64,000 nt of DNA from Paraspadella gotoi (lineage: Eukaryota > Animalia > Chaetognatha), in contig CM119269.1 of the NCBI GenBank assembly GCA_051294375.1, positions 1,504,537 through 1,568,536 on the forward strand. The letters run 5' to 3'. Positions 905 through 26,829 of this stretch are shown one piece after another; the first letter of the stretch is position 1, and each line of letters starts with the position of its first letter. Made by a program: the position numbers and the translations under genes. The notes below the pieces were generated by a model, which saw nothing but the letters and a program-made list of their open reading frames with translations, was not told where the DNA came from and ran no database searches.

Positions 905-1284
905 CCTGCCCCAACATCTGCCCATCACTGCAATCACCGCGTATGCGATTCACAGATCACACCCACGCCAACAAGTGCAAGTTCGAGGTGGCCGCGTTGC
1001 TTGGCGCAGAAGATGGGGCTCGACCTGAAGCTCGCAATTTCGGGCCTGCGAGAAGGCGGAATGGTGAAGTCGTCGCTATGAAGTACCACAACTTTTTTCT
1101 CCCCATCATTTTCCAATTCTCTCTTCCGCAGTGTGTCTCAGGTTTGCGCCTAAGGATCTCCGGCCCGTTTGCGACGATCAGGGCGTAACGCATCCTAACG
1201 AATGCCTCTTCCGAGTGGCGCAGTGCGAGTTGCACGTCAAGGGTGGCGTGATCAATCTCGCGCATCAGGGACCGTGCCGAGACA
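905..1284 (+). CDS. Two Kazal-type protease-inhibitor domain exons (about 905-1063 and 1132-1284) of the large modular gene
   Basis: Translations ACPNICPSLQSP..THANKCKFEVAA..GPC and CLR.PKDLRPVCDDQGVTHPNECLFRVAQC...LAHQGPC fit the Kazal C-x3-C-x7-C-x6-(Y/H)-x-N-x-C..C..G-x-C pattern; AG/GT boundaries; small frameshifts are likely errors. Confidence 0.85.
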
Positions 1285-1471
1285 GTGAGTCAAGTCGATA
1301 TATTTATACTTTTTCAGCTTTGTTCATATTATTTAATATTTATACGCGGAGAATTTGGTACGATCTTTATCTCGCAAATTGTTGTGCCTTGTCAAATCAC
1401 TCAATTTCGTGCCCCTTCTGTTTCCAGAAATTCCCTTCTGTTTTCCCTTCTGTTTTCCCTTCTGTTTCCAG

Positions 1472-1937
1472 AAACGAAACCGGAATACGTGGTCATCGTT
1501 CACACGGGAGGATTCAAATCCCAAAGTCTGAAGCAACAACCACCAGGTGCAGTTCACGGTCAAATTCTCTTGACTAAGGACGGTCGGGCATAGGATCGGA
1601 CTGCTTTTAAACTTTGATTCGCCTTAGTTAGTAGTCAACCCAATTCATTTACATTCAGGCGATCCAGCGTCGGCGGGGACGGCGGCCGGCGCCACTCTGA
1701 TCATCCGCGGCGTCGTGGGAGGGAACTCGGTTGAATGCGTCATCGTCGCGCCGCCACAAAGCTTCGATCAGCCCGACGGGATTAGGGCAAGCATATGATT
1801 AGGGCATATGATTAGGGCAAGCATATGATTGATTGAATCACTCTTTTACTGATTAACTGATTGATTCGGTTTATTTCAGTAACAATTTGACTGATTCAAT
1901 GATTATCAACTGATTAATTGATTTGTTGATTATTTTT

Positions 1938-2033
<96 letters not shown>

Positions 2034-3533
2034 TTTTCTTTTTCCTTCTTTTTTTTTTCTTTTCCAACGCCTCAAACAGATCTTCAAGCGACGATGCAAT
2101 CCCCTTGGAGACATTAAGAGTCTCGAGGTGATATTCCTCAACGCGGACGATTGGTACTTGGAAAACGTCGTCGTGATTTCGCCAGAAAGACTCGTCGAAT
2201 TTCAAGTCGAAAAATGGTTCGGGAACGGAGCAGGTAATACAAACAATCAATTTTTCTCTGACAAATTTTACAAAAAACTTTTTAAATTGTTTAGACTTAG
2301 AGTTATATTTGTGAGCGATAACGATTTTTCGGTCCTGATCGTCGATCCCGTTGGTTCAGTGCCGAACATCATCCTGCCCTCCGGAGGATCGAACGGGATC
2401 GCCGACTCCAAGGATTCCGAAGACTTCGCCGTCACCCTTCGAACCGGTGGCCCGCGCTCGGCGGCGCTCAAAGATCTCGATCCAGGTTCATATATTAACA
2501 TATATATACATTAATTAAGTAGATACAATGAAATCTTAATCTTAACGCATTTACAACGTCTACTCTTTGTATCATTGCAGATATTTTTAATTTGTTTATT
2601 CGATAATGTTTAAATAGTCAAACAAAATGAAGCTGGAACTGAGAAGTCCGTCAAGGTGACGCTCTTCATCGAAAGTCACGGTCAACGAATCCCTTGTGAG
2701 TTTGTCTTTGCAGCGGGATCTCTCAGCCAGTTGGACTCCCAAACGGTTAGTCAAATTTAGTACGAGAATTATTTAATTTCGGATAATAAGTGTTAATTTT
2801 TTAAAATTGTTTTACCTCATTCCTATTTGGGCTCGTCAAATTATATAATATACAATTCTTCCTATGGTGCTAATCATATAAAAATATTCATAAAAATCAG
2901 CCAAACCCAAATTTTATTATTTTTTTAAACATTCAAAATACCGACACTTTGCTTTCAAGAAACCAAACTTTATGACTAATTAAACAATTCATTTGCAGAC
3001 AATGAGCTATCGGTGCCCAGCTAAAGGCTTTGTTCATAACATCAAAATAGATTACAATGACTCCGATATGTGGTTTTTGGAAAAAATAATAGTTAAATCT
3101 CCCAACAAAACAAGGAAGACTATGCCTGTAAATAAATGGCTGGGATTTAAAAACGGTAAAATATTTAATATTATTTAAAGTCAGTTGTTTTCTTTACGGA
3201 ATTCTTAATTAAGGTTTGGTGGATATTTTTTTCCCCCTTTTCTTAGCTTTAACGGGATCATCTGCGAAGGAGACTTATAAAATCAGGATAAGATTAGGAT
3301 ATATCTATACATCTACTTCTCGTCTCAAGTCTGGAAGTACAAGTCAGTTTATAAATCGGTCCACTTTCAATCAACCTCATAATAGAAATATTTTCAATAA
3401 TTACCATTATTGTTTTTTTTTTTTTTTTTCAATATTCAGTTCTCTCTGTAACTCTTTACGGGAAATTAGGAAGCCTATGGACTTCTTGTTCCGGAACTAT
3501 TCAGAGCAGGCTATCTCACAATGACTCTCTCTG
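1472..3533 (+). CDS. PLAT/LH2 domains 1, 2 and first part of 3 (exons 1472-1546, 1659-1786, 2080-2233, 2360-2485, 2618-2745, 2999-3155, 3247-3342, 3440-3533)
   Basis: Spliced translation gives YVVIVHTGG..AGTAAGATLIIRG..C..|..RCNPLGDIKSLEV..DDWYLENVVV..FQVEKWFG and FAVTLRTGG..AGTEKSVKVTL..C..|RCPAKG..DMWFLEKIIV..PVNKWLG. This is the PLAT signature (Y.V.V.TG..AGT...G.I..I.....W.L..V.V....F....W). Confidence 0.85.
1938..2030. repeat. (TTTC)n microsatellite in intron
   Basis: Direct inspection; it explains the spurious KERK ORFs. Confidence 0.95.
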
Positions 3534-4414: not shown

Positions 4415-6765
4415 TCAGTTTGTGACGGCGGCGATGACCAGTGTGTCGGCGAAGCCTACAGTTGCCTTAGTCCACTTGGTTTGACTTCCATGTGCTTCAG
4501 TCGAGTAAACAAGAAGCGGATATTGAGCGTTGGTAATTTTAGGGAGGCATATCGAATTGCTCCTGTTGGTTTTTTTAGTAGTAGTTAAAATATCAAGCTA
4601 ATTCTGTAGTTGTTGCAAAGCGTTTTACCTGATGACAACCATGATCCATCCCTGTTCATTCGCACAAGGCCAGCTACTTTGGAACACATAGAACAGCCTT
4701 GTGGATGTTTCGAACCGAAATATATTCCCTAAGATTGTCAATGGTACAAATGAATTTTTTTTTTCATTAATTTTTTAATCCATTTTAAAAATTTGTATTT
4801 TATATAATTCACTTTGTCGGTCCGTCGGTCCGCCCCCCAATTTTGTCGGGCATTTACTTATATCATGTCAGAACATCGAATTATGATAAATTATGCAAAA
4901 AAAAATGATATCCGTCCGTCCGTCCGTCCGTCCGTCCGTCCGTCTGGCTGTCCCACCTTATCAAAAAAGACCAATTACTCGTGATTTGATAGATGGATTT
5001 GAATGAAATTTTGTGAATGAGTAGGAAAGTGTGTGATTGAGCAGGAAATAAAGTTTCGATGGAATCGTCCAAGTGGATATAAGTTAAAATGGAAAAAGCA
5101 AACAACCTATTTCACCATTTGATTATTTTTTTTAAATTTTTATATTAAATGTAAATTCAAGCTGCATTAATTACTTATTGATAAATAAGTAAATAATTAC
5201 TAATTTATTATTTGTAATTAATTAATTAATTAATTAATTAATTAATTTCAAGATTGTTTTGTGATTGAGAGGCGAGACAAAGTGGAAAACGATTTTGACA
5301 CGAATAAAAAAATTAATTAATTAATTAATTAATTATCTGATCAGCTGCCTACCTCTAATGATCGTTGGCAGATCCGGCATTGTTTGCTCAAACTTGTTTT
5401 AAAGACGGTCACATTTATTCAAATCTTTTACTAATTTTAACCCATAATTACTTTAATTAATCATAATTGGATGGATAAATTGAGATGAAATTTTGTGTGT
5501 TGGTATGAAAGTGTATGATTGGGTTGGATATAAAGTTTCGATGGAATTGCGTGGGTGGAAATAAATTTAAATGAAAAAACATAAGTCACATTTACTTGAA
5601 TATTTTTACTAATTTTAACCCATAATTACTCGAATTAATCAAAATTGGATGGAAAGATTGAGATGAAATTTTGTGTGGGGGTAGAAATGTGTGTGATTGA
5701 GTAGGACGTAAAGTTTCGATGGAATCGAGGAGTGGAAATAAGTTTACATGGAAAAAAACAAAGTCAAGTTAATTTGAATTGAAAAAATGATGCAAGTTGA
5801 AAATATTATGCGACTTAAAAAAATGGAGCAAATTTAAAAAAATGATGTGAGTTAAAAAAATGATGCCATTTTAAAAAATTATGCCAGTTTAAAAAATTAT
5901 GCCAATTGAAAAAAATGATGCAAGTTACAAAAATGATGTGAGTTAAAAAAATGATGCAAGTTGAAAAGCTGATGCGAGTTGAAAAACTGATGCAAGTTTA
6001 AAAAATGATGCGAGTTAAAAAATGTTGCGAGTTTAAAAAATGATTCGAGTTTAAAAAATTATGAGTTTAGTATAAAATGTTTAGTAGAGCGTAGTGAAAG
6101 TTACGTACGGAAATTCTAAATGTCAATTATGAAAAATATACCATCAGTGAACATTAATTTGTAAAAAAAATAAATTTTTATGTTTTTTAATTTCGCAGTA
6201 GGCTATATTTATATATAAAATTGAAAAATTCAAAATAGGCTTTTCTTAATTTTGATTGCAGATTTGAATTCTCGTCAAAAGTTGATATAAGAAAATATAA
6301 ACCATTTTTAAAAATTATTTCATTAAGTGGGTTAAAAATTAAAAAAACTATATTCAATCAACTTTTTATGACGAATCCAAATCTGCAAAAAAATCTTAGA
6401 AAAAACTGTTTTGAAATTTTAACATTTATTGGATTAGTACTAGTATAAATATGGCTTACTGCATAAATTGTAAAATTTATTATAAATTTTTTATACATAA
6501 ATGTTCATTAGTATAATGTTGTTCGTTCCTCACGTTTAGAATTTTATTTAAAGTTAAATTTAAAGAAATTTTACTACGCCTTAGTGTTTAGTATCCGAAC
6601 AGGGTTTGACCCGTTTTTGAGGCTTAATCTGTTCTACCGTCTTCCAATTTTGGGCCACAATTGTTTTATTGTGGCCATCTTTTGTGAACCAATTGTATGG
6701 TTTTGTATTGTTCATCAAAAGGGATACAACAACAGCGACGCCATCTTGTAGAATGTCAGCTGCAC
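4415..6765 (-). CDS. 3' exons (about 6765-6638, 4728-4629, 4562-4415) of the nested antisense type II membrane protein gene, copy A
   Basis: VQLTFYKDGVAVV..NTKPYNWFTK..|GNIFRFETSTRLFYVFQSSWPCANEQGWIMVVIR|SNSICLPKITNAQYPLLVYSTEAHGSQTKWTKATVGFADTLVIAAVTN*; canonical AG/GT sites with consistent phases. Confidence 0.75.
5783..6068. repeat. ~20-bp tandem repeat (AAAAAATGATGCAAGTT); related array at 35390-35587
   Basis: Direct inspection. Confidence 0.85.
6085..6583. mobile_element. hAT-type MITE copy
   Basis: Termini TAGAGCGTAGT...ACTACGCCTTA; flanks ATGTTTAG / GTGTTTAG (7/8 match TSD). Confidence 0.8.
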
Positions 6766-7728
6766 CTACAAATTAAAAAACAAGGATGGTTATTCCAAGG
6801 TGTTACACTGCATTACTTATCCTTTTACTTTCTTGTATTACTGTGTATATACAACACCCCTCNNNNNNNNNNNNNNNNNNNNNNNNNNNNNNNNNNNNNN
6901 NNNNNNNNNNNNNNNNNNNNNNNNNNNNNNNNNNNNNNNNNNNNNNNNNNNNNNNNNNNNNNTTTTATAAGTCTCCTTCGCATGGATGATCCCCGTTTAA
7001 AAGCTAAGAAAAAAAAACAATATCCACCAAACCTTAATTAAAGAATTCTGTAAAGAAAACAACTGGACTTTTAAAAATTCGAAAAATGATTTTAACCCGT
7101 TTTAAAGTCCAAGCCATTTATTTAGCAGGGCATAGTCCTTCTTGTTTGCTTTTGGAGATTTAACTATTATTTTTTCCAAAACTACATATCGGAGTCATAT
7201 GTATATCTATTTTTATGTTATGAGACGAAAGCCCTTTAGCTGGGCACGCGATAGTCATGTCTGGCGAAATGAATGTTTAATTAGTCATTAAAGTTTGGTT
7301 TCTTTAATGTTTAAAATAAATAATAAAAATTTGGGTTTTGGCTGATTTTTATGAATTATTTTTATATGATTGGGCACCATAATAAGGTTGTATATTATCT
7401 AATTTGACGAGGCCCAATATGGTTGAGGTAAAACAATTTTTTAAAAAATTAACACTTATTTTATCCGAAATTAAATAAGTTCTTCGTACTAAAATTGACT
7501 AACCGTTTGGGAGTCCAACTGGCTTAGAGAATGTTACCCTGCTGCAAAGACAAATCTCACAAGGGGATTCGTTGAGCCGTGACTTTCGATAAAGCAGCGT
7601 CACTTTCAACGGGACTTCTCAGGTTCGCCAGCTTTCATTTTGGTTTGACTGGAAATAAAGAACCAATGACTATTTTAAACATTTATCGATTAATACAAAT
7701 TAAAAATATCTGCAATGATACCAAAGAG

Positions 7729-8162
7729 TAAGGGCGTTAGTGAAAGTTACATACGAAAATTCTAAAAGTCAATTTATGAACAACATACCATCAGTGAACA
7801 TTTAATTTGTAAAAAAAAATTAATTTATGTTTTTTTTAATTTTCGCAGGTAGGGCTATATATTCTTTTTTTATTTTGACCCAGCTTAATGAAGGAATTTT
7901 CAAAAAGAGTTATATTTCTTTTTATCAACTTTTTACTGACAACATCCAAAACTGTTAAAAAAAATCTTAGAAAAAATGTTTGAAATTTTTAACATTTATT
8001 CGGTTTTGAGTAACTGTATATAATATGGCCTAGCTGCGTAAATTGTAAAATTTATTATAAAATTTTTTTATTCATAAATGTTCATTACGTATAATATTCT
8101 GTTCGTTTCCTCATTTTATAATTTTAATTAATTGTTAAATTAGAATTTTTACTACGCCTTTA
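7729..8162. mobile_element. hAT-type MITE copy absent from the other haplotype
   Basis: TAAG(G)GCGT(T)AGT...ACTACGCCTT(T)A flanked by (A/C)CAAAGAG duplication; empty site tactctttgt at 2561-2570. Confidence 0.8.
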
Positions 8163-10260
8163 ACAAAGAGTAGAACGTTGTAAACTGCGTTAATGATTAA
8201 AGATTTCATTGTCTCTACTTAATAATGTATATATATCATAAATATAGTAGGATTAATATAATGAACCTGGAATCGAGATCTTGTTGAGCGCCGGCCGAGC
8301 GCATGGTGCCACCGGTTCCGAAGGGTGACGGCGAAGTCTTCGGAATCCTTAGGTCGGCGACCCGTTCGCGATCGCTTCCGGACGGGCATGGATGATGTTC
8401 CGCTCACTGAACCAACGGAGATGCGACGATGCAGTGACCGAAAAAATCGTTATCGCTCATCAAAGATTGATTTTTTTTTTTTAAAACTCTAAACAATTTA
8501 AAAAGTCTTTTTTGTAAAATTTGTCAAAGAAAAATTGATTGTTTGTATTACGCGTGCTCGCGTTTCCGAACATTTTTTTCGACTTTGAAATTCGACGAGT
8601 CTTTCGGCGAAATCACGAACGACGTTTTTCCCACCCAGTAGCAATCGTCCGAGTGAGGAATTATCACGCTCGAGACTCTTAATGTCTCCAAGGGGATTGC
8701 ATGCGTAGTTGAAGATGCTGTTTGAGGCGTTGGGAAAAGAAAAGAAAAGAAAGAAGAAAAAAGAAAAAAAGAAAGAAAAGAAAGAAAGAAAGAGAAGAAA
8801 GAAAAAGCCACGAAGAAAGAAAGAAAGAAAGAAAAAAGAAATAAAGAAAGAAAAATAAATTCAACGATCAATTAAATCAGGTTGATATCATGTGAATTCA
8901 GTCAAATTGTTATTCTGAAATGAAACGCGAATCAATGCAGTTAATGCAGTAAAAAGAGTTATTCAATCAATCATAGCTTGCGCCCTGAATCATATTCCCT
9001 AATCATGAGTGCCTTGCCCTAATCCGCGTCGGGCTGATCGAAGCTTTGCTGGCGGCGCGACGATGACCGGCATTCACGAGTTCCCTCCACAGACGCCGCG
9101 CAGCGATATCAGAGTGGCGGGCCGGACGCCGTCCCCGCCGACGATGGCATCCGCCTGAATGTAACATGAACTTGGGTTGAGCTACCTAAACTGAATGTAA
9201 ATGAATTGGGTTTGACTTACTAAACTGAATGTAAATGAATTGCGGTTGACTACTAACTAAGGCGAAATCAAAGTTAAAAGCAGTCCATCCTCTGCCCGAC
9301 CGTCCTTAGTCAAGGAGAATCTTAGACCGGTGAGACGTGAACTGGTGGTTGGTTGCTTGTCAGATTCTGGGATTTGATTCCTTCCCGTGTGAACGCATGA
9401 CAACGTATTGCCGGTTTCGGTTTCTGACAATAACAGAAGGGAAAACAGAAGGGAATCTTCTGGAAACAGAAGGGCACGAAATTGAGTGATTTAACTAAGC
9501 AGCACAATTTGAGAGATAAAGTATCGTACCAAACATTCTCCCGCGTATAAATATTATAAATAATATTGAACAAAGCTGAAAAAGTATAAATATATCCACT
9601 AGAACTCACTTGTCTTGGCACGGTCCCTGATTGCGCGACGAAATTGATCACGTGCCATCCGCTTGCTTGGCATCTGCGCACTGCGCCACTCGGAAGAGGA
9701 TTCCGTTAAGGATTGGCATGTTAGCGACGCCTGATCGTCGCAAAACGGGCGCCGGAGATCCTTAGTGCATAACCTTTGAGACACACTGTGGAAGAGAGAA
9801 TTTGAAAATGAATGGGGAGCAAAAAAGTTCGTACTTATAACGACTACTCACATTTCCGCTTCTCGCACGCGCCCGAAATGTGCGAGGCTTCAGTGTCGAG
9901 GCCCCATCTTCGCGCCAGCAACGGCCACCTCGAACCTTGCACTTGTTGGCCGTGGGTGTGATCCGTGAGAATCGCCATACGGGTGATTGCAGTGTTGGGC
10001 AGATGCTGGGGCAGGCTGGGTGTTGGAGGGGGTCAGAATACAGAAATACGAAAATATGTAAATCTAACCAACAGGATAAGAACCTTAACAAGCAAATAAA
10101 AAAAATCGTCACTGCAAAAAACGTATGAAACTTACGGGGACTGACTGACTTGCAAGATAATCGTCAGTGAAACGGGATCCAAAACGAATTCGTTGGAGGG
10201 AAAGTCTTGGTCGGAAACTTGCGGCAAGGCGCACCTTAAATGAGAGAAATCGAAAAAAGT

Positions 10261-10334
10261 TGCCGTGACCAGAGAGTCGAACCTGGGTCGTCGCGGCCAC
10301 AACGCGACAGTACTAACCGCTATACTATCACGGC
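10261..10334 (-). tRNA. tRNA-His (GUG), second-haplotype copy
   Basis: RC = GCCGTGATAGTATAGCGGTTAGTACTGTCGCGTTGTGGCCGCGACGACCCAGGTTCGACTCTCTGGTCACGGCA. Confidence 0.88.
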
Positions 10335-11014
10335 CGGATGAAAAGAAGGTAAAGCTTTGTGGTTAGTATTTTATCGAAGAACGACAGCGAAATTTATTCA
10401 CAACTTCCTCACTATCTGTTTTTCCTCCTTTCCTAAATCTCTCTCTCTCTATCTCTCTCTCTCCTCTCCTCTCTCTCTCTCTGTCTCTCATCTCTCTCTC
10501 TCCTCCTCTCTTCTCTTCTCTCACACCTCTTCCATTGGGCATCCATCCCTGTCGTTCTAGTCCACAATTCTGCCGAATCGGCAAAGGCGGTTCCCATCGC
10601 TTCGGGACAAGGAACACAATGTCGCGATTCTTTGCCGCAGATGGAAACTCCAGATCGACGTACGTGGTTCCATCGGGCAGACGTCGTCGTCGTCAGAGAG
10701 ATTTCTAAGAACATATTTGAATTATTTGATACATGCTTTGAAGATTTAAATTTAAATGAATAATTATTTAATCACGTTACGTTGACGCATTTTTCCGTGC
10801 TCCGAGACGCATTTTATGGACTTTGGCATCCGCATTCTCTAAAAAACGTATTTTAAAAATTAACAAAAACAACTAAATAAAATACGAGAACAGCCGAACG
10901 ACAGAATGACATTTTATGCTTCAGGTTTTTTTCAAGACGATCCCCTTGTTTTTTTGTTTTTTTTTTTTGGTTCACCCAAACAAAACAAAAAACAAAAACA
11001 AAACAAAAGACTCA

Positions 11015-11239
11015 CGAAGCGACCGTCGCCTCTGGTAACACTTTTTGTGCAGATCGAGCGACGCGTGTACGCACGCAGCCTGCGAGGCCCGCTCCGCCAA
11101 CCCCGCCGTCTCAAAGGGGCAGGCTTCTTCGAGAACCGGAGTTCGAAACACTCGAGACAGCGGCCCTCGACGGGGTCGTAGTAATGGCCTGAGCCCGGGA
11201 CGGGGAAGCGCTCGGGGAACGGTAGCAGGAAGCGGGGAA
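11015..11239 (-). CDS. Kunitz/BPTI-like exon of the large modular gene (frameshifted by errors)
   Basis: After acceptor ttcccag: FPASCYRSPS..PGSGHYYDPVEGRCLECF..ACPFETA..; YYD...G.C and F.T are Kunitz-like motifs. Confidence 0.55.
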
Positions 11240-11293
11240 CTGGGAAGATACGAGAAAGGGAGCTTAGTAAGTCATTTGATCGTCATCGTCATC

Positions 11294-11330
<37 letters not shown>

Positions 11331-11824
11331 ATCATCATCATCAAAGCCAAAAAAATCATAATCGAATATATGTACTCTTTGGGCGGGAATGTGGGATCCT
11401 CTGGAACGCAAGTTCGATCGACCTCTTGGGTACGCATTCTTGGTTAGGATGTCCACAAGCATTTTTATTGAAGGTCACTTCTGACAAGCATCGTCGCATC
11501 CCTTGGGTGGGGGGAAGGTGAGAGAACCGGATTTTATTTATGAAAATTACTCTCAAACTTTTGACCCTTTAATATCAAAATCTGGGCGAAAAATTATATA
11601 TCTTTCAACGCAACGAAAAGAACATAAAATTGTTTTCTCTGAACACATCTATCAGAGGCAAGCACTTGATAATCCATTTCTGCTTTGCTATAGTTGTACT
11701 AATCTTGATATGCACTTGCGTTTAAAATAAAACTTCAAATAAAACATAGTATAGTAGAAGAGAAAGAGGTCAACCAGTCACCAGGCCTTTTTCCGGCTCC
11801 TGAAAAACTTTACTTCGAACTTAG

Positions 11825-12345
11825 GCACGTTCCCTGGTGAGCCTCGCAGCCTGCTCCCAACAGCCCGTCTTCAGTTGCGCGTCCTTCTCTTGACGTAAGA
11901 GCGACATCTTGGGTCCTCGACGCGGCAGACTGATCGGAGCGCGGGGGGCGGCAGGTGAGACAAGCGTACACTCTTCAACACCGCAGCAGTCCGTCTCCTT
12001 CGCCGGGTAGGTGTACCCTTGTGGAGAAGGGTGAAAAGGTTATCTGAGAAACACGATCTCTCTCTCTCTCTTTCTTTCTCTTTCTATCTACTCTCTCTGT
12101 CTCTCTCTCACAAAAATTTAAACTTACCGTAACCACTATGCGTTCCCGTCTTCAGCTCGCAGATAAACGGATCCGGAGGCGGGCAGCCATCGCAACACTT
12201 GTAGCCTGCAGGCACTCGCAGTGGAGCGCGCTCTCGTAATCGGGCCTCCATAGGTTTTCGACGAGGCACTGGGCGGTGTGGTCGGAGGGGTGGGGCCGTC
12301 CACAGACGACGGAACAGTCTCGGGAGAGCGGGAGTGAGAAGTGCA
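11825..12345 (-). CDS. Cys-rich WAP/four-disulfide-core-like exons (about 12345-12128 and 12042-11825)
   Basis: Frame-joined translation ..DCSVVCG..QCL..CECPAGYKCCDGCPPPDPFICE.. ending at a gtaag donor, and QGYTYPAKETDCCGVEEC; CP.G.KCC..GC is the WAP motif. Sequence is noisy. Confidence 0.5.
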
Positions 12346-12969
12346 ACCTTGTCGAAATCTCGGTTTATGCGAAAGAGGCGCTTCCTTTAGTTTTTTAAAG
12401 AGAGGAAGGAGAAAAAGAAATCACAAACTTTTGCTTACAACAACTTTGTTACTTTTTAAATGGCACGACAAATGAACTAACCGGAAAATCACCAAAGTAA
12501 GCGCGTTTGTCAACGAAATCTCCCATCGTTCTCGTTGGCTGGAAAAATGAGCATGGACCCGATAAATAGCCAATTATATCCATTAATGAAACGAATCGAA
12601 TCTAATTATGATTTTTTATCCAAGTTTGTTTTTTTTTTAAACGCTTTCTATTTACCTGACCGGAAGCTGAGAGACAAACAAGTAAACACACACCATACGC
12701 GACAACGTGGCGAAGTATTTTTCCTTTCCGAGGTTTCTCATCCTAGGGCGGGGTTTTATCTTTTTGCACAAATAGTGAATTAATCGGCAATTGTAATGTT
12801 TCGCATGATAGATATTATTTTTTTTCTATTTTGTCATTCTTGGTTCCTAATCTTGAGCGCATTGAAAAAAAAAAAAGGTCGCCGAACCGACGTCCGTCGC
12901 CTTCGCCGATAGTTTACATTACGCGACGACGCCCTGAAACTGCACCCGCGACTCAAGAATCACTTTTTT

Positions 12970-13012
<43 letters not shown>

Positions 13013-13026
13013 GAGAGGAGAGAGAG

Positions 13027-13058
<32 letters not shown>

Positions 13059-13237
13059 AGAGAGAGATTATATATATATATATATTGATCTTACATTGTA
13101 TGTTCATTATTATTACGATATACGAAGTTTCCTCTTAAAGTTGCAGTTATCTTTTAACTTTACAACATCATATTCATGAAATACGAGATTCGGTTGGGAT
13201 AAAAGTATAGCACAGGAGTAAAGATCCAATCAGAAAA

Positions 13238-14790
13238 CCTCGTGGCCTGGTGTGCCTCTTGTTACGATAATGTTGGAAATGTTTGAAACGCTATCGTTAA
13301 CCTCTTTGAAGAGTAGACTCAAGGACAATAAGACGCTGCAGTAACCTTCGGGTTTCTGTTTATTTGTTGATAGTAATCGAGTCGCGAAACCGGTCACCCG
13401 CAGGAACGGGGGCGAAGGTCGGATCGAGAAGACGACGGCTTTTTGGTTGGGAGGAGGACCCCTCGTGGTGGCGATTATCTCAAATAAAATGACGAAAGAG
13501 ACGGGACGCGAAAAGCGCAGTGGTACATCGCCACGCTTCCGGTTTCGTAACAAATTTGACGTGATTTCTAATGACTCAGAAATGTGAGGATAACAACATT
13601 AAAATATGTATTTTAAACGAAAAAATGGTTTATTTAATTAGAAAAATAAACCCTATTTCTTTGTGTTATCATCTAAAACTTTTAAGTTTCCCTTTAATAT
13701 GAACCCTCAATGGGTTTTTATCTAAACAAAAACTTAACGATGGAAGAAAGTGGAAGAACAAAGAAAAAATAAAAGAACAGAATAATAGAAAATAAGGAAT
13801 AGAAAGAAAGTGTAGAACGGCAGAGAACAAGAAGAAAGAAAAGTAACAGAATGATAGAAAAGTAAGGAACAGAAAGAAAAAGAATAGAAAAAAGAATAGA
13901 AAGAAAGAAAGATCAGTAACCTTTTCCTGACGTGATCATCGCTACTTCTCTTCGTAAATTCTTGTAGTCAGAAACTATCGGAGGCACGACTACCGTACTT
14001 TTCGCCGACAGATTGAACCTGATAAAAATAATACTGCAGTGCTCACAACTTATATGTGAGGAGAATAGTCTTTCATTCCTACAGTACACTTAAATATTTT
14101 AATTGTATTTTGACTTTCTTTCGCTATTTAAAATAGTATAGAGGTAAACGAAAATCGTTGGAATAGCAATCTTTATTTTTATTATTGTACAATGTACATG
14201 TTTCGACTCTTAGTGGTACGAGTCTCATCAGCAACTCTGTAATATTTTAACTTGAAAATCAACGGGATATAGAAATGAAACTATATCATAATTAAATTGA
14301 ATATTGAACTATAACAATATCATTTAAAGTATTTCATTTATCTTTAACAAACACTTTTTGAAAAAAAAATTCGAAAAAAAGTACTAGAAATTCTAGTAGA
14401 ATATTAGAAAAAGTGAAAAAAATTCAAGAAGCTTAATATAATTAAAAAAAAGAGGGCCAGTCTTTACTTTTTTTCTACGTTATTCATAAAATTACGTCAA
14501 GATTAAAACAATAATAACGCTAATATTAAAAGCTTTTTAATGAAACTGTTTCTGCTTATCATAACGCATGATCAACACGTACCTCAAAAAGAAAAAAAAA
14601 AATTAATTTATGGTATATTGGAGCATGTATGGAAACGAAAGGGTTTTCCGGCACAATCTTCGGAGGTTCTTGACGATAGAAAAGAATGTCTACTCGTGCT
14701 GTCGTTGTGGTTCGGCAACCAAAGGAGCGTTCGAAATGCCACCAGTCCAGTTGCGGTGTTCTCCCGCTTCGCCCCAGTAAGCCAGTAAAG
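13238..14790 (-). CDS. Possible divergent von Willebrand factor A domain exons
   Basis: Fragments GCRTTTTARVDILF..KIVPENPF (about 14720-14640), FNLSAKSTVVVPPIVSDYKNLRREVAMITSGK (14018-13921, AG/GT flanked) and TGSVAMYHCAF..KAVVF (about 13545-13430) fall in vWA motif order. The DxSxS motif is not visible. Confidence 0.3.
14192..14234 (-). ncRNA. Minimal type I hammerhead ribozyme motif (Penelope-like)
   Basis: RC = TTG CTGATGA GACTC gtaccactaa GAGTC GAAAC AT GTA CAT: intact core, 5-bp stem II, palindromic ACATGT stem III; stem I is short. Confidence 0.7.
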
Positions 14791-15145
14791 CCTCTGAATT
14801 GTTTAGAGCCCCTTGATCATTGTGGTTTGATGATACCACTGGCGAGGAAGGTAAATTCATTGAGATACGGCATTAAAATCTCAATTTGTTTTCTACAAGT
14901 ACTCGTAAATTTAAATTCAGATTTACATTTTTACCATGCACAAGATTGTGTATAAAACAAACACCTGAATAATTGCAGTGATCAAATGCGGATTTAGGCC
15001 ATGCTAGCCTGGATGGTCCTTCCCGTGTGTATGTCTCAAAGCTTTTGTGCAAGTAGCCTGTCTATGCGCGCCACAAGGGAGGTGGGATGCCACGCGTCAA
15101 AGGCAGCCTGTGTGATTGTTAGGTTGTTCCACATTTCTTAAACTC

Positions 15146-15980
15146 ATCAGGATAAGATTAGGATATATCTATACATCTACTTCTCATCTCAAGTCTGGAA
15201 GTACAAGTCAGTTAATAAATCGATCCACTTTCAATCAACCTTAAAATGAAAATATTTTCAAAAATTACCATTATTGTTTTTTTTTCCCAATATTCAGTTC
15301 TCTCTGTAACTCTTTACGGGAAATTAGGCAGCTTATGGACTTCTTGTTCCGGAAGTATTCAGAGCAGGCTATCTCACAATGACTCTCTACTGGTAAGAAT
15401 TTTTCTTTAGCCGGATCTGCTTACAGCAGATCTCGGCTCTTTAATTAACTCTGTCGGTCTGTCGGTAAGTCACTTGTATCATCTCAGAACATCGAATTAT
15501 AGAAAATTTACAAAAAAATGATGTCCCTTCGTCTGTTCGTCCGTATGTCCGTCCCCCCTTAGCTTTGAACGCCAATTACTCATGAATGGATGAGGCGATT
15601 GTGTAATTGTGTAAATCAAGTTTCTATAGAATCATCCAAGTGGAAATGAGTTAAAATGGAAAAAAAAAAATCACTATTCGATTAAGCTTTTTTTCTCTTT
15701 ATATTAAATGTAAATTCAAAATGCATTATTAATTAATTATTGATAAATTAGTAATTAATTATTATTTTGTAATTAATTAATTCATTAATTAATTTTGTGA
15801 TCGAGATTGTTCTTTTGTGATTGAGAGGCGAGACGAAGTGGAAAACGATTAAAAAAAATATTAATTAATTATTTTTATTAATTATTGTTATTCATTAATT
15901 AATTAATTATCTGATCAGCTGCTTACCGCTAATGATCGTGGGCAGATCCGGCATTGTTTGCTCAAACTTGTTCATGCCTA

Positions 15981-16013
<33 letters not shown>

Positions 16014-17750
16014 AGTGGTGTAACCGTGATTCCACTGAAGTAGACGAGTGATTTAATTAAATAAATCTAAATAAAATCATTAATAGTAATAACTTGTATG
16101 TAATCCTCCGAGTGCCCAGGTAATTATTCAAAACCGAAAGTGGATAGTAAGGCGTAGTAAAATTTCTAAATTTAACTTTAATTAAAATTCTAAAAGTGAG
16201 GAACGAACAACATTATACTAATAAACGTTTATGTACTAAAAAAATTTTTAAGAAATTTTACAATTTACGCAGTAGGCCATATTTATACTAGTATTAAACC
16301 AATAATTGTTAAAATTTGAAAACAGTTTTTTCTAAGATTTTTTTGCAGATTTGGATTCGTCATAAAAAGTTTATAAAAAGAAATATAACTCTTTTTGAAA
16401 AATTTCTTCATTAAGAGGTCAAAAATTAGAAAAAGCTATATTTTAAGCTGAAAATTAACTTTTTATATATTTAATATAGTTTTTTTTATTTTTAACCCAC
16501 TTAATGAAATAATTTTTAAAAATGATTCATATTTTCTTTTATCAACTTTTGACGAGGAATTCAAATCTGCAATCAAAATTAAGAAAAGCCTATTTTGAAA
16601 TTTTTCGATTTTATAAGGATAGTATTATATAAATATAGCCTACTGCGAAAATTAAAAAACATAAAATTAATTTTCTTTACAAATTAATGTTCACTGATGG
16701 TATGTTGTTCATAATTGACTTTTAGAATCTTCGTATGTAACTTTCACTACGCCTTAGTGGATAGTTCTGAATAATGTTCAATGCTATTTGCACCGTGATC
16801 AGTTTGTGACGGCGGCGATGACCATGGTGTCGGCGAAGCCTGCATTTGCCTTAAACCACGTGGTTTGACTTCCATATGCTTCAGTCGAGTAAACCAAAAG
16901 CGGATATTGAGCGTTAGTAATTTTAGGAAGGCATGTCGGATCGCTCCTGTTGGTTTTTAGTAGTAGTTAAAATATCAAGCTAATTTTGTAGTTGTTGTAA
17001 AGCGTTATACCTGATGACAACCATGATCCATCCCTGTTCATCCTTACAATGAAAGTTACTTCGGTACACATAGAACAGCCTTGTGGATGTTTCGAACTGA
17101 AATATTTTCCCTAAGATTGTCAATGGTACAAATGAAATTTTTTAATATTTTTTTAACCTATTTTATAAATTTATATTTTTTTTTAGCCGGATCTGCTTAC
17201 GGCAAATTCCGGCTCTATAATTCACTTTGTCAGTCCGTCGGNNNNNNNNNNNNNNNNNNNNNNNNNNNNNNNNNNNNNNNNNNNNNNNNNNNNNNNNNNN
17301 NNNNNNNNNNNNNNNNNNNNNNNNNNNNNNNNNNNNNNNNNNNNNNNNNNNNNNNNNNNNNNNNNNNNNNNNNNNNNNNNNNNNNNNNNNNNNNNNNNNN
17401 NNNNNNNNNNNNNNNNNNNNNNNNNNNNNNNNNNNNNNNNNNNNNNNNNNNNNNNNNNNNNNNNNNNNNNNNNNGTGGAAATGAGTTAAAATGGAAAAAA
17501 CAATCTATTTCACTGTTTGATTATGTTTTTTTTTATAATAAATGTAAATTTAAGCTGCATTAATTAATTATTAATAAATAAGTAATTAATTAATTATTTA
17601 TTTTTTGTAATTAATTAATTAATTAATTTCAAGATTGTTTTGTGATTGAGAGGCGAGACAAAGTGGAAAACTATTTTGACACGAATAAATTTTTTTTTAT
17701 TAATTAATTAATTAATTAATTATCTGATCAGCTGCTTACCGCTAATGATC
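15146..17750 (+). repeat. Direct duplicate (second haplotype) of about 3282-5365, including host exons 15146-15205 and 15298-15392
   Basis: Collinear near-identity apart from the MITE at 16148-16756. Confidence 0.85.
16148..16756. mobile_element. Complete 609-bp hAT-type MITE
   Basis: TIR TAAGGCGTAGT...ACTACGCCTTA, perfect 8-bp TSD GTGGATAG (16140-16147 and 16757-16764), empty site at 4373-4380. No coding capacity. Confidence 0.9.
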
Positions 17751-20700
17751 GTACAAGCGCCGGTAAAAAAACGGTGTCATTTGCAAACCAGTGGTTATTT
17801 TACTGATTTTAAAATTTAGTTGAGTAGAAAATACTAAAACTNNNNNNNNNNNNNNNNNNNNNNNNNNNNNNNNNNNNNNNNNNNNNNNNNNNNNNNNNNN
17901 NNNNNNNNNNNNNNNNNNNNNNNNNNNNNNNNNNNNNNNNNNNNNNNNNNNNNNNNNNNNNNNNNNNNNNNNNNNNNNNNNNNNNNNNNNNNNNNNNNNN
18001 NNNNNNNNNNNNNNNNNNNNNNNNNNNNNNNNNNNNNNNNNNNNNNNNNNNNNNNNNNNNNNNNNNNNNNNNNNNNNNNNNNNNNNNNNNNNNNNNNNNN
18101 NNNNNNNNNNNNNNNNNNNNNNNNNNNNNNNNNNNNNNNNNNNNNNNNNNNNNNNNNNNNNNNNNNNNNNNNNNNNNNNNNNNNNNNNNNNAATAAAATC
18201 CACTTTGGTTTCGCCTAGAAATCCCTGTCTGTTTACTTAATTGTAAGTATCATGAAAGAGCCTGAAAAAATAGGCAATCACAATTTGCTAAAAATCTTAA
18301 ATTTACCCTCCAGTTATTGATTTTTGGANNNNNNNNNNNNNNNNNNNNNNNNNNNNNNNNNNNNNNNNNNNNNNNNNNNNNNNNNNNNNNNNNNNNNNNN
18401 NNNNNNNNNNNNNNNNNNNNNNNNNNNNNNNNNNNNNNNNNNNNNNNNNNNNNNNNNNNNNNNNNNNNNNNNNNNNNNNNNNNNNNNNNNNNNNNNNNNN
18501 ATCTGATTAGCTGATTACCGCTTAATTATCGTTGGCAGATGTTTGCTTAAACTTGTTTTTTTGAAAACTTTATTTATCATCATTTTCTGGACAACTCGGG
18601 ATGATAAACAAGTATTTTGATTAAATTTATGTGCATAATTATTAGTTTAGTATCCGAACAGGGTTTGACCCGTTTTTGAGTCCTAATCTGTTCTTACCGT
18701 TTTCCAATTTTGGGCCTACAATTGTTTTATTGTGGCCATTTTTTGTGAACCAATTGTATGGTTTTGTATTTTTTCCGTCAAAAATGGATTCAACAACAGG
18801 GACGTCATCTTTGTAGAATGTCAGACGCACCTACGAAGTAAAAAAACAAGGAATGGTTATTCCAAGGTTTTGCGCTGCATTAGTACTTTTTCTTTAACTT
18901 TCTTGTATTTCTGTGTATATACAACACGCTCTGCATTGAAATCACATCTTTTATTTCTTATACAGGGAGGTCCAGGTCTTTTGGGATTAAATGAAAAAAT
19001 TTGTTTGGATGCGTAAATAAACGAATTATGATTTGAAAATTAGTACACATGTAAAGAATTATAATAACAACACAATATATTTAAAACAATCATCTTTGGG
19101 TTCAGAGAAGGCGGCATATGCTTTTGCGACTGCGCCCATTAGAAATTCCGCTATTCCTACAATTATTACTGCTGTCAAAAAGTCAAGAATTGTTGAGGGG
19201 AAGCGTAGGATATTCTGCTTCTGAGTCCTACATTTTTATTAATCAGCGGAATTACAGGAAAAAAAAGCGCAGTCAAAAGTCAAAAGTTACCATCCATCAT
19301 TTTGATTTTTGCCCAAATTTCCAAAAATTTTGTAAAGAACCAGCGCGAAAAAATATAATATGCTTTACAAAAAGCATTATTACAGGAGTTGCCACAACAT
19401 TTTTCAGACAATTTTGATATTGATTGAAATAAAAATTAGCCTACTTTCCAACTATAATCTTTTTTTTCTTCTATTGTTAACCGTTTTTATACTGTAAGCA
19501 CTTGAAGTTAGTTTCAAAAGAGCTGGAGATCCCTATAGTTTATAAGATTTTTTTAAAAACAAAAGGCGGCGCTCGTCGTCGCTTATATTTAAGGTCTTTT
19601 CTGTTTTAACAAATGAGCAACAAACTATAAGGATTATAACTTGCCTATAGGCGTTATCCACGTAAGTGGGACAGACTGATAAACATACCGACCGACAGAC
19701 CAACGGACCGACAGACCGACCAAAAAGTGAGTACATCAAGTAAAGTGACCACAACCAAAAAATTCCTACCTTTTTATCGTTGTTTTGAAATTGCAAATCC
19801 CATACAGATTCTGTGAGGTTGAGCTGAGTGAGAATATCGATTCCTGAGCCGGCACGAACTATTAATAGAATCACGTCACCTTGGAAAATAAATAATAAAA
19901 TTGATTAATTGTAAAGCGTATATGGAACAGTGTCTATTAATGAAAGATAAACAACACTTTGATTGTTGTCAGAAAAAGAGAGAGGAAAAAAAACAAGACC
20001 GGTCAATTCAATGTGTTGCGCCGAGGTGACTTTCTTAGCCTATGTATTTATAACTTCTTATAACTTCCTTCTTTTAATCTTTATAGTTTTTGGATTTTCT
20101 AAAGGTGGCGCTACCAATCATTTAGATTTTAGGTTTTTCCTGTCTTAACAAATGAGCACCTAACTTGTCGTTATGAAGCATTTTTTAACATATGTTGTGA
20201 CCAAGACCGATGGAAAGAACCGAACGACTGACCAACAGATAGAACCATACCGAAAAGTGAATTATGAGTTTGTTTCTGGCAAGTACTCGCGGCGCACTTC
20301 AAACCTTCGTTATTGAATCAAGATCGGATTGGGGACGACGAAGGACGAACGACGACGACGAAATGAGAACGAATTGGGACGACGAATGTTTATTTCATAA
20401 ATTTCATAATTTTTTTTAATTTGTCTTAAATTTTAATTAATTTAAATTTTAATTCTAAATTTTTGAGAGGAATCCCATATGTGAGAGAGTATCCCAGTGC
20501 GGGAGAAATACATTGGAGGTCTCCCGTGTGGGAGGAATTCCTGTGTGAGAAGAAGATCCCGTGGGGAGGAATTCGTTGTGGGAGAATTCGCCCAGTGGAA
20601 GGAAGACCACCGGCAACAATTTGTTTGAATGGATAGAAAGTCCGCTTGGTGGCGAAGTCATTATTAGGCAGTGGATGGAATGCTAACCTGCCCATCTGGA

Positions 20701-23700
20701 CAGTGTCCAAGATTCAAACTTTTCCATGGCTTATTTATAAAAGGTGTTTAAAGTTATTTATTATAGATTTTATTTTCTTGTCCCTCACTTCCCCTTACCT
20801 TGATGCATGTTTATAATTTCCTGATCAAAGGATTTTTGATTTTTGATTGAGTGAACCATGTCTGACAACTCGAAATCGCTGTCAATGTCTCATTATAATG
20901 AGATGAGATGAGTTCGGAAATCTTTGTTCATCTCGTTGGTTTCTTGTCGATCTTCTCCAAATTTTTGGAGAATCCCGCATTCATAATATCGTCAAGTTTT
21001 CAGGAGATAGAAGTCTCCTTTCCGCTGCCTAAATGTTCCCAATTCTTGAATGGAAGAATTCAATTCATTGGTCGAGAGCCCCAAGTTTGATGTCAAGGTG
21101 AATGAGATTTCCGTATATTCGTCTGTCTCTTTTTATTTGATTGATAGTTTTGAAATCCTTGGTCTCTCTCGATGAAGTATTACTGAGCTGCTTTTCTTCA
21201 GACAACAATGGGGCGTCGATGTCATTGGTTTTTTTGTCAAGGATTGTTGCAGCATGAGACGGTGAATCCAATTAGAAATTTTCTGGCGATATGTCAGACT
21301 TGATGCCCAAAAACCCAGTATTTATATTCGCCGGTCTGGTTGAGGATGGCCATATCCAATTTTTCAATGGCATCATCTATATCTTTTGTTTCTTCTTCTA
21401 TTGTTTTATTCAAATCTACTAGATTGTCAGCCAGAATCCTTGCCTCGGAATCTACTTTGTCCTGCACAGTTGAAATGTTAGACTGTATATTCTTTGTTTC
21501 CTGTAAAAACTTTTCTTCAGCGCCTGAAATAACTTCAGAAATGTTTCTAGTTTTCACTTCTATACTAGTATCCAAGGTGTCTAGTTTTGTCCAAACCTGA
21601 TTGTTGTATAGAGACGTTTTATTGTCCAGCTTCGATAAAGCGAGGTCTATTTTTAAGGTCTCCTTGCTAAAATTTGTTTGAAGGCTGCCCAAACTTTTTT
21701 CAATTTCATTTGTTTCATTAATCAGCTTGCTTTCTAGAGTCCTCAAACCTCTGCCTATATCATCCGATCTATTAATGACTTCCTGATGAACTATATTAAG
21801 TTTTCCATCTATTTTTGTTGACCTTTCATCAATTGTATCATTGATGTTGTAAAGAGAATCGTCAACTTCTTTGAACTCTTCATCAAGTTTTGTGGTCAGA
21901 TTTGATATCGCCGTGTTGAACTCGTTTGTTTCCATCTTGACCACCTCGTCCAAGTTGACCAAGNNNNNNNNNNAAAACTTTTCTTCAGCGCCTGAAATAA
22001 CTTCAGAAATGTTTCTAGTTTTCACTTCTATACTAGTATCCAAGGTGTCTAGTTTTGTCCAAACCTNNNNNNNNNNNNNNNNNNNNNNNNNGTTTTGCGC
22101 TGCATTAGTACTTTTTCTTTAACTTTCTTGTATTTCTGTGAATATACAACACGCTCTGCATTGAAATCACATCTTTTATTTCTTATACAGGGAGGTCCAG
22201 GTCTTTTGGGATTAAATGAAAAAATTTGTTTGGATGCGTAAATAAACGAATTATGATTTGAAAATTAGTACACATGTAAAGAATTATAATAACAACACAA
22301 TATATTTAAAACAATCATCTTTGGGTTCAGAGAAGGCGGCATATGCTTTTGCGACTGCGCCCATTAGAAATTCCGCTATTCCTACAATTATTACTGCTGT
22401 CAAAAAGTCAAGAATTGTTGAGGGGAAGCGTAGGATATTCTGCTTCTGAGTCCTACATTTTATTAATCAGCGGAATTACAGGAAAAAAAAAGCGCAGTCA
22501 AAAGTCAAAAGTTACCATCCATCATTTTTGATTTTTGCCCAAATTTCCAAAAATTTTGTAAAGAACCAGCGCGAAAAAAATATAATATGCTTTACAAAAA
22601 GCATTATTACAGGAGTTGCCACAACATTTTTCAGACAATTTTGATATTGATTGAAATAAAAATTAGCCTACTTCCAACTATAATCTTTTTTTTTCTTCTA
22701 TTGTTAACCGTTTTTATACTGTAAGCACTTGAAGTTAGTTTCAAAAGAGCTGGAGATCCCTATAGTTTATAAGATTTTTTTTAAAAACAAAAGGCGGCGC
22801 TCGTCGTCGCTTATATTTAAGGTCTTTTCTGTTTTAACAAATGAGCAACAAACTATAAGGATTATAACTTGCCTATAGGCGTTACCAGTCAGTGAGGACA
22901 GACTGATAAACAATACGCACCAACAAGACCAACCGACCGACGTAGACACGACCCAAGTGACTATGAGGCTTCTTGAGTACAGTGCAATAACAAGTTTGAC
23001 ACAACCAAAAAAATTCCTACCTTTTTTATCGTTGTTTTGAAATTGCTTATCCCATAAGATTCTGTGAGGTTGAGCTGAGTGAGAATATCGATTCTGAGCC
23101 GCACGAACTATAATAGAACACGTCACCTTGAAAAAAAAATTAAAATTAATTAATTGTAAAGCGTATATGGAACAGTGTCTATTAATGAAAGATAAGACAA
23201 CATTTGATTGTTGTAGAAAAAGAGAGAAGGAAAAAAACAAGACCGTCAATTCAATGTGTTGCTTCCTAAAGAGATACTAATCTCTTAGCCATGTATTTAT
23301 AAACATGTCATTTGGAATTCCTTTTTTAATCTTTATAGTTTTTGGATTTTCTAAAGGTGGCGCTACAATCATTTAGATTTTAGGTTTTCCTGTCTTAACA
23401 AATGAACAACCAACTATAGGCCAGATATTAGCATTTTTTAACATAAGTGGGACAGGCCGACAGACAAATCAACACCGACAACTACCAAAAAGTGACTTAT
23501 AGAGTTGTCTGCAAGTACTCCTGGCGCTTAAAAGGTTGAATCAAGATCTGATGTGTGGATGACGATGATGTTATTTCAAAAATTTCTTAATTCTTTAAAA
23601 AAATTTTAATCTACTTCTTAAATTTAAATTAAATTTAAAATTAAACTCTCATTCTTCATAAATGAGGAAATCATAGAACTACTATTCTGTCAACCACTGA

Positions 23701-26632: not shown

Positions 26633-26829
26633 AAATACACAGAACCAATCGTTACCCTTACCTTGTCGAGTTCATCGACCCTGACTGAGAGGAAGATGAG
26701 TAAGAGGACGACGACGACGACGCCGACGACGCTGACGAGGACAAACAGCACCTTTCCAACCGCACTGGCGTTTGAGCCTTCGCCTTGTTTTTCGCTCTCT
26801 GTCGCATATGTGTCCTCAGAAGACGGCAT
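16799..26829 (-). CDS. Nested antisense gene: type II transmembrane protein with long coiled-coil stalk and C-terminal globular domain (exons 26829-26662, 25905-24163, uncertain small exons about 19160-19075 and 18980-18899, 18829-18698, 17110-17011, 16946-16799)
   Basis: MPSSEDTYATESEKQGEGSNASAVGK-VLFVLVSVVGVVVVVLLLIFL (TM). Then a ~1.74-kb heptad-rich exon with repeated ETxEID motifs and many N-x-S/T sites. Then VRLTFYKDDVPVVESIFDGKNTKPYNWF..RLFYV..C..EQGWIMVV..CLP..YPLLVYS..W..AGFADTMVIAAV*. The coiled-coil exon is partly duplicated at about 20800-22046. Confidence 0.75.
19560..20290 (-). mobile_element. Second Helentron/DINE-like repeat family (GG(C/T)GGCGCT motif plus (GACC/GACA)n); also about 22790-23520, 48290-48440, 55190-55335
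   Basis: Recurrent motif order aaGG(C/T)GGCGCT..ttagattt.agg..aacaaatg..taagt.ggacagac(cgac)n. Confidence 0.5.
22092..25356 (+). repeat. Direct duplicate (other haplotype) of about 18866-21963
   Basis: Collinear; identical 63-aa ORF at 19033 and 22258; the duplicate starts at an N-gap. Confidence 0.85.
23760..24070. repeat. ~20-bp GGGATTCCTCCCGCAT tandem array; related array in opposite orientation at about 20465-20620
   Basis: Direct inspection. Confidence 0.75.

Follow-up and report, generated by a model that had tools for sequence, protein, structure and literature searches.

The locus described here is best read as part of a so far undescribed multigene family, in which stalked recognition receptors carry a tip that diversifies. 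Within the 64,000-nt stretch of Paraspadella gotoi DNA that was analysed (the window), a gene on the minus strand, nested in what is likely another gene, is present in two versions, A and B. These are likely alleles of an expressed type II receptor whose tip has likely been diversified by selection for changing foreign or non-self ligands, a reading that, taken as a whole, we hold to be slightly better than even. Such a receptor family was not found described in the literature, judged by titles and the starts of abstracts. To our knowledge, specific recognition receptors are known from only a minority of invertebrate lineages, and the known ones (snail PTC/GRC, Hydractinia Alr and ascidian Themis) are mutually unrelated. 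With a constant stalk and a tip that is small and variable, and with DNA and RNA runs publicly available, the family would offer an easy test bed for balancing selection and for the ligand; should the excess of tip changes prove neutral, what remains is a divergent membrane-protein family of the ordinary sort, seen in an assembly with poor phasing.

The nested gene has six exons and encodes a product of ~799 aa, and this model is supported by RNA contigs with exon-exon joints in public runs; the RNA status of runs X5, X7 and X8 was itself judged from such joints. The product is predicted to be a type II membrane protein consisting of a short tail, one hydrophobic helix, a ~580-aa stalk and a ~162-aa tip, in line with the original prediction of a type II protein on a long stalk, and the exon order is RNA-supported. 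Exon 1 (26662..26829; this and all following exons are on the minus strand) contains the ATG, an acidic N-terminal tail of 26 aa that includes a single Tyr, and a 21-aa hydrophobic segment (mean hydropathy 3.51 from residue 27), the predicted signal-anchor. It is joined to exon 2 in runs X5 and X8 (contig loose ends at 25907). A hemITAM motif includes a hydrophobic residue at +3; the single Tyr of the tail is without one, and therefore no signalling motif is claimed for the tail. Exon 2 of haplotype A (24163..25905) encodes the ~580-aa stalk of 18-residue helical repeats. Its frameshifts at 25015 and 24793 are one-base assembly errors; an X5 contig over this exon has no other letters and two one-base gaps. 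Of exon 2 in haplotype B, the 3′ part is present (20803..21963), stopping at an N gap and noisy below ~21330, and its five differences at 25279-25341 agree with a bubble in run X6. The tip domain begins in exon 3, which lies at 23021..23126 in haplotype A (a noisy copy, with a spliced loose end in X5) and at 19770..19879 in haplotype B. Exon 4 is found at 18698..18830 in haplotype B, with its frame open into exon 5, and at 6638..6765 in haplotype A, again as a noisy copy, whose 3′ end corresponds to the loose end of the X5 contig at 4729; both haplotype B exons were placed from sequence. Exons 3 and 4 add up to 243 nt, which fits the gap in a single 787-nt X5 contig covering exon 2 plus exons 5-6. 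Exon 5 (100 nt; version A, 4629..4728; version B, 17011..17110, with a B-type contig in X7) encodes the variable loop around the first Cys. Exon 6 (148 nt; A, 4415..4562; B, 16799..16946, represented in X1 by a B-type contig of depth 19) encodes the second Cys and ends with the stop codon. Intron 5 measures 66 nt in A (4563..4628) and 64 nt in B (16947-17010) and is skipped in the X5 and X7 contigs. Both versions of exons 5 and 6 have AG/GT ends and no indels, and their coordinates and translations are exactly those originally given.

Both versions are real. Run X7 contains spliced contigs of A and of B (depth 2.0-2.4), and both are present as genomic contigs in run X1. Many blocks of the assembly are noisy (3-9 gap openings per 100 bases), as would suit the idea that the differences between A and B are sequencing or assembly errors, a possibility that had been named as one to be checked in raw reads. 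However, the rate of gap openings in the tip block is 0.3 per 100 bases, and both versions recur letter for letter in independent public runs of different studies, spliced RNA included. The differences are therefore not errors, and this explanation, now refuted, is left with next to no probability.

A and B are quite probably uncollapsed alleles of one gene. The whole window is built of block pairs ~3% apart, and the duplicated block takes in host-gene exons, with its breaks at N gaps and at an inverted, noisy copy. Furthermore, in X6 the region 25249-25371 is covered by two contigs of depth 6.3 (A) and 7.4 (carrying B's five changes), next to a merged contig of depth 14.8. An improbable alternative is that the B tip came from another family member, either as a partial extra copy or by gene conversion from a paralogue into one allele. 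That a multigene family exists would make this feasible. In X1, A contigs have depths of 25-31 and B contigs of 13.5-19, and the contigs do not display the stalk letters that B has at 25066 and 25093; the imbalance (A ~28, B ~16) and the missing letters are unlike a plain heterozygote and look like two A copies plus an extra B tip. Moreover, X6 has the B stalk with no B-type tip contig, and the X5 contigs are of the A version only; short bubbles, though, are dropped from contigs of this kind, and such holes prove nothing. Against a paralogous source, the duplicated blocks, host exons included, rebuild into two collinear haplotypes, the bubble in X6 is 1:1, intron 5 and the 3′ UTR are only 5-7% apart between A and B, and a pasted patch should have brought synonymous changes, of which exon 5 has none.

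The differences between A and B are unevenly distributed along the protein. The stalk has a helical period of 3.60/3.58 with autocorrelation at lag 18, contains no Pro and no Cys, and carries 19 N-glycosylation sequons in 505 aa as against ~8 expected; a structure model of its first 296 aa consists of two long helices. Between A and B it is under constraint (dN/dS 0.25). The tip versions, on the other hand, differ by nine nonsynonymous and no synonymous codons in exon 5 and by nine and four, respectively, in exon 6, exactly as first counted, so that 18 of 81 amino acids are changed, seven of them with altered charge. Exon 4 has six nonsynonymous differences and one synonymous difference in 38 ungapped codons (six codons were dropped for gaps). 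Nonsynonymous and synonymous changes number 22:4 in the tip (exons 5-6) and 8:8 in the stalk (p = 0.02), and the proportion of changed nonsynonymous sites is 22/184 versus 8/269 (p = 2e-4). Coding divergence in exons 5-6 reaches 26/248 (10.5%) compared with 386/12,817 (3.0%) in nine other duplicated blocks, and only one of 46 background windows of equal size reaches 26 differences. This supports the earlier view that variation gathers in the distal domain near the conserved Cys: the tip has only two Cys (positions 102 and 119, 17 apart), and of the 24 positions no more than six residues from either, 10 are changed versus 8 of 57 elsewhere (p = 0.009), a distance chosen post hoc, clustering being significant at one of four window sizes (p 0.012, 0.053, 0.19, 0.48).

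What the original prediction missed is that the gene is one of several related ones, a multigene family in which divergence between members falls in the same loop. There are at least three further gene copies, with stalk pieces ~91% identical and an intron 5 stretch 84-87% identical, and X1 contains three further intron-5 variants at depth 25-28. Across intron 5 and the last part of exon 5 the paralogue contigs are 84-87% identical, and they become unalignable at the loop. Intron 5 is better conserved than the adjoining exon loop. Four 30-nt paralogue loop ends differ from A at 14, 17, 18 and 22 of 30 bases, yet hand translation gives an open frame in each, and the Cys is in register in the three ends that reach across it. 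In exon 6 of one paralogue, 80 other letters replace 74. The stalk contigs of paralogues show 15/164, 22/252 and 11/120 differing positions, a conservation that is biased upward because only contigs with at least 90% identity were admitted. The divergence of family members in the same loop strengthens the reading of diversifying selection.

The claim that A and B differ almost only at amino-acid-changing sites is correct in its counts, but not as a departure from chance: 22 of the 26 base changes in exons 5-6 are nonsynonymous where 77% would be expected (184 of 240 sites), and the excess of dN/dS (1.72) over 1 is not significant with two sequences (p = 0.23-0.25). Exon 5 alone, at 11:0, comes closer (p = 0.065-0.079 against neutrality), and dN/dS for exon 6 alone is 0.90. 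Nor do the tip's nonsynonymous changes (22/184) exceed the gene-wide synonymous ones (12/126; p = 0.32). The A/B pair alone is thus compatible with relaxed constraint, that is, with a weakly constrained tip in an old haplotype stretch drifting near-neutrally, with no selection for diversity needed. Some neutral stretches do match the tip divergence, namely a small host intron nearby (9/86) and the end of intron 4 (7/69). Intron 5 has three substitutions in 64 aligned bases. We nevertheless regard drift as unlikely. Neither A nor B nor any of the four paralogue loop pieces has a stop or frameshift; both Cys, the GW motif and the exon ends are retained while adjoining codons are replaced wholesale; a 19-residue run in exon 6 has three synonymous and no amino-acid changes; and among the paralogues the intron is better conserved than the loop. 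Selection for change probably acts on part of the tip; the tip/stalk contrast and the paralogue loops lend support to the diversifying selection first proposed, and dN/dS taken alone does not establish it.

The searches for relatives of the tip used single exons of 32-48 aa, and because of these single-exon queries their blank results are weak. Exon 6 and exon 4 had no matches in a set of 5.8 billion sequences (longer proteins only), nor had the stalk as query, and a two-sequence profile of exon 6 had none among 1.84 billion representatives. Single tip exons came nowhere near the cut-off in Pfam, NCBIfam and PHROGs (four exons in Pfam/NCBIfam), three gave one chance match to PDB sequences (E 1.6), and two gave no usable match in the ESM Atlas. 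Pattern matches in metagenome and genome contigs were confirmed in 0 of 155 and 0 of 32 cases, respectively. Exon 6 modelled alone reached a pLDDT of 45. The tip may resemble a fibrinogen-like domain that has no name but is common among marine invertebrates. A comparison of the whole tip with three frames from bacterial Fibrinogen_C loci, of which only the 221-aa frame is fibrinogen-like, scored no better than shuffles and is uninformative.

Plus-strand exons with PLAT and Kazal matches flank the nested gene on both sides, and the nested gene likely sits antisense inside an intron of a PLAT gene. Likely host exons upstream of it (1149..3533, plus strand) match Kazal_1 (E 8e-8) and PLAT (E 3e-4 to 0.025, below Pfam's cut-off), and more weak PLAT matches occur near 44000 and 47150; the likely host has several PLAT, Kazal and Gly/Gln repeats. 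This putative layout has a parallel in Ciona, where variable v-Themis is nested antisense in an intron of s-Themis, an LH2/PLAT gene (PMC9265791). By analogy, the nested gene and its host could act together, one as ligand and the other as its linked receptor, in self-sterility or gamete recognition, which we consider very unlikely. Host exon pieces beside the nested gene in the same block are not hypervariable, with four substitutions and one one-base indel in ~160 nt, as few as first noted, and none of the 69 open stretches scanned within the window matches REJ, GPS or a membrane/PKD channel; the host's 5′ end may lie outside. These stretches and exons give no sign of a PKD1-like host with a hypervariable region. 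Ciona s-Themis combines a hypervariable region with REJ, GPS and either 5 or 11 membrane helices, and v-Themis is a fibrinogen-like protein of the vitelline coat (PMC9265791), whereas for the nested product a membrane anchor is predicted. The alleles here are also only modestly divergent (78% identity in exons 5-6).

For the preferred reading of a selected tip on a membrane receptor, the stalk would keep the ~162-residue tip at a distance from the cell, and several chains could join their stalks into a parallel coiled coil of up to ~80 nm (at 0.15 nm per residue). The two Cys may form a disulfide pinning the variable loops into one ligand-binding patch, and alleles and paralogues together might constitute a repertoire that balancing selection, driven by parasites or microbes, maintains. 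Given selection on the tip, immune or microbe recognition would be the more probable function, and self/non-self or gamete recognition a possible but lesser one. More tentatively, the type II family, in which ~80-nm stalks would carry an unnamed binding domain and in which alleles and paralogues, perhaps shuffled between shared stalks, would vary in the same Cys-pinned loops, may be an undescribed repertoire forming this lineage's own immune or self/non-self system.

The predicted topology recalls FIBCD1 and stalked type II lectin receptors, with a short tail, one membrane helix, a coiled-coil ectodomain and a C-terminal recognition domain. FIBCD1 has a Cys401-Cys414 disulfide at its ligand site (PMC3908420), and here too variable residues flank a Cys pair. 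A FIBCD1-type ligand-site disulfide with a spacing of 13 and a cis-peptide was rejected, Cys 102 and 119 being spaced 17; unlike FIBCD1, moreover, no single tip exon matched Fibrinogen_C or anything else, the tip is ~162 aa, the stalk is far longer, and the family is multigenic and variable. Alr proteins of Hydractinia are type I. Alr1 and Alr2 are highly polymorphic transmembrane proteins varying in the distal domain (PMC8282982), as is the protein described here, and they belong to the immunoglobulin superfamily (PMC9546547). An Alr-type ectodomain is not indicated here: the predicted layout is type II, a single domain follows the helical stalk, and single-exon scans gave no Ig match. Biomphalaria PTC2 and GRC offer an analogy as membrane proteins that cross the bilayer once and whose alleles are very divergent, which has been attributed to long-term balancing selection by parasites (PMC7494358). 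Their synonymous divergence exceeds the nonsynonymous over whole megabase haplotypes, unlike the excess here, which is confined to the tip on a conserved stalk with flanks 3% apart. Like the PTC, GRC and Alr proteins, the nested gene product is single-pass (as predicted) and multi-copy and has excess allelic divergence in its ectodomain.

Assembled contigs of X5, one of three public sequencing runs (X5, X7 and X8) taken as RNA from their exon-exon joints, helped to define the six-exon minus-strand gene, whose two versions are named A and B. A 1423-nt X5 contig joined exon 1 to exon 2 and identified two frameshifts in exon 2 as one-base assembly errors. A 787-nt contig carried the end of exon 2 (letters 1-105) and exons 5 and 6 (letters 346-754, with the 66-nt intron skipped), its unplaced middle matching the size of exons 3 and 4 (110 + 133 nt). 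The reading frame has 800 codons including the stop. Exon 1 encodes a 26-aa tail followed by 21 residues with a mean hydropathy of 3.5, exon 2 a stalk, and exons 3-6 a 162-aa tip with two cysteines, at 102 and 119. The stalk has no Pro or Cys, shows a hydrophobic period of 3.60 and self-similarity peaking at lag 18, and contains 19 sequons in 505 aa where about 8 would be expected, an excess that fits an extracellular position. Modelled as a single chain, the first 296 aa of the stalk formed two long helices (pLDDT 76, pTM 0.24), and we infer an oligomeric coiled coil near 80 nm long. At 24759-24794, a block common to a paralogue branch, depth fell from 106 in the X5 5′-stalk contig to 21.6 in the next A-type contig, which could be due to transcripts combining A's 5′ stalk with another 3′ half, or to coverage bias.

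The exon pairs of the original prediction (exon 5, 4728-4629 and 17110-17011; exon 6, 4562-4415 and 16946-16799) were recovered with AG/GT ends and no indels, and its codon counts were reproduced: exon 5 has nine nonsynonymous and no synonymous codon differences, exon 6 nine and four. In total, 18 of 81 residues differ. When contigs of four of the nine runs listed were compared with 4255-4810, X1 contained A without any difference as well as B with B's letters, and X7, from another study, yielded spliced contigs of both types, so that the differences are not errors. The spliced X5 contig over exons 5-6 was of A type only.

The observation thus stands and its interpretation finds partial support; the proposed excess of amino acid changes was overstated for two sequences: 77% of sites are nonsynonymous anyway, and the dN/dS of exons 5 and 6 (22/184 nonsynonymous, 4/56 synonymous sites; 1.72) does not differ significantly from neutrality (p = 0.23-0.25). 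Exon 5 alone gave 11:0 (p = 0.065-0.079) and exon 6 alone a dN/dS of 0.90. Tip pN was indistinguishable from pooled synonymous divergence (12/126; p = 0.32), and one host intron differed at 9 of 86 bases. This is the pattern that relaxed constraint on the tip would give, an explanation we consider rather unlikely in view of the paralogue loops described below. The stalk, by comparison, had a dN/dS of 0.25 (8:8; clean 113 codons), and tip and stalk differed in pN (p = 2e-4) and N:S (p = 0.02; 28:5, p = 0.014, with noisy exon 4 included at 6:1, six gapped codons dropped). The 26 differences in 248 coding bases of exons 5 and 6 reach a level seen in one of 46 background windows. Changes were concentrated within six residues of either Cys (10/24 versus 8/57 elsewhere; p = 0.009, post hoc), and a window test for clustering was significant for one of four sizes.

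The draft assembly of the window is AT-rich, of animal type and interrupted by 11 N gaps; it is made up for the most part of direct or inverted block pairs. Nine of these pairs show 386 differences over 12,817 aligned bases (3.0%), and many contain 3-9 gap openings per 100 bases, which noisy long-read fill would produce. Two collinear haplotypes could be rebuilt from the sequence, A as 1-6860 plus 22092 onward, and B as 6963-15145 inverted plus 15146-21963; the segment 6963-15145 appears to have been placed in the wrong orientation, its reverse complement running on into 15146 and restoring host haplotype B. As this arrangement predicts, X5 connects the A tip with the stalk at 24161-25907. X6 has two contigs over exactly 25249-25371, at depths 6.3 (A) and 7.4 (with B's five differences), a merged contig at 14.8 and A's exon 6 at 6.0, which indicates one diploid locus. 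In X1, however, depth was 25-31 for A and 13.5-19 for B, and two B-specific stalk letters were absent from the contigs displayed, both of which count against plain alleles. An animal pool with dropped short bubbles would explain this pattern, as would an extra B tip; that B's tip is a paralogue or a converted patch nevertheless seems quite improbable beside the X6 depths, and A and B are probably alleles.

The gene also has expressed relatives. X1 contains three further intron-5 variants (depth 25-28), and spliced paralogues occur in X7 and X8. X6 contigs share 84-87% identity over intron 5 and the exon 5 end (11 differences in 69; 9 plus 3 gaps in 72), beyond which the variable loop no longer aligns. 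At the loop, four loose ends of 30 nt (X1, X6 and X7), translated by hand on the assumption that they hold no gaps, are all open and differ from A at 14, 17, 18 and 22 bases (4/9 to 8/10 residues); all three that span the Cys position keep it in register. That the loops have diverged beyond the adjoining intron, with frame and cysteine kept, is the strongest evidence in this analysis for selection favouring change, although conversion homogenising the intron could mimic it. Several contigs omit the middle of exon 6, one having 80 different letters in place of 74. Paralogue stalk contigs, among the matches listed, differ from A at 15/164, 22/252 and 11/120 positions, in a comparison that admitted contigs of at least 90% identity only, with 104 further pieces beyond those listed. 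At a loose end at 4424 (X6, X7), an expressed paralogue reads past A's stop position into a Pro/Thr-rich extension (hand translation, 30 nt).

In the most likely reading, the product serves as a recognition receptor on the cell surface. Stalks of several chains would bundle and raise the tips over the surface coat, where a putative disulfide may pin a pair of loops that binds a quickly changing ligand; change in the ligand would drive alleles and paralogues apart at the loops while the stalk stays conserved. The data establish how the gene is built, that it is expressed and how its divergence is distributed; topology, oligomer, disulfide, binding and selective agent are inferred. FIBCD1-type stalked receptors (PMC3908420) resemble the product in layout but not in Cys spacing, and snail PTC/GRC (PMC7494358) and Hydractinia Alr resemble it in polymorphism. 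Kazal and weak PLAT matches on the plus strand flank the gene on both sides, so it probably lies nested within a large PLAT/Kazal host, an arrangement that recalls s/v-Themis (PMC9265791). A Themis-like pair of nested gene and host is very doubtful, the host being without PKD1 features in the stretches scanned. With single short exons as queries, the tip had no match in sequence or domain libraries; with the different Cys spacing and the host's lack of PKD1 features, this leaves membership in any of these groups unsupported, and such stalked, tip-variable membrane proteins apparently form an undescribed family.

One giant plus-strand gene likely occupies 1149-3533 and 43900-57700, combining a Kazal domain with several divergent PLAT/LH2-like repeats. 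The combination is unusual, and the titles of the papers retrieved by a term search do not describe it. At 29900-39790, exons rich in Gly, Gln, Ser and Asn recur along with a 99-108-nt tandem array, likely forming a long spacer in the host gene; within it, 36032-37530 is repeated in inverted orientation at 38128-39600 (96%), which is probably an artefact of assembly. Cys-rich minus-strand exons without a Pfam match lie at about 11000-12400. A 609-bp non-coding element (16148-16756) interrupts the 3′ UTR in haplotype B only. Its terminal inverted repeats are 11 bp long, and its target duplication of 8 bp suggests a hAT-type MITE; relatives end at 166 and 6583. A dispersed repeat of ~220 bp, SINE-like in size, occurs in several copies and in both orientations (42241-42876, 43751-43952, 47321-47532, 50951-51155). 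The start of another plus-strand gene lies in 59915-64000; its first exon is long, acidic and of low complexity, and it contains an 18-nt tandem array at 60725-60985.
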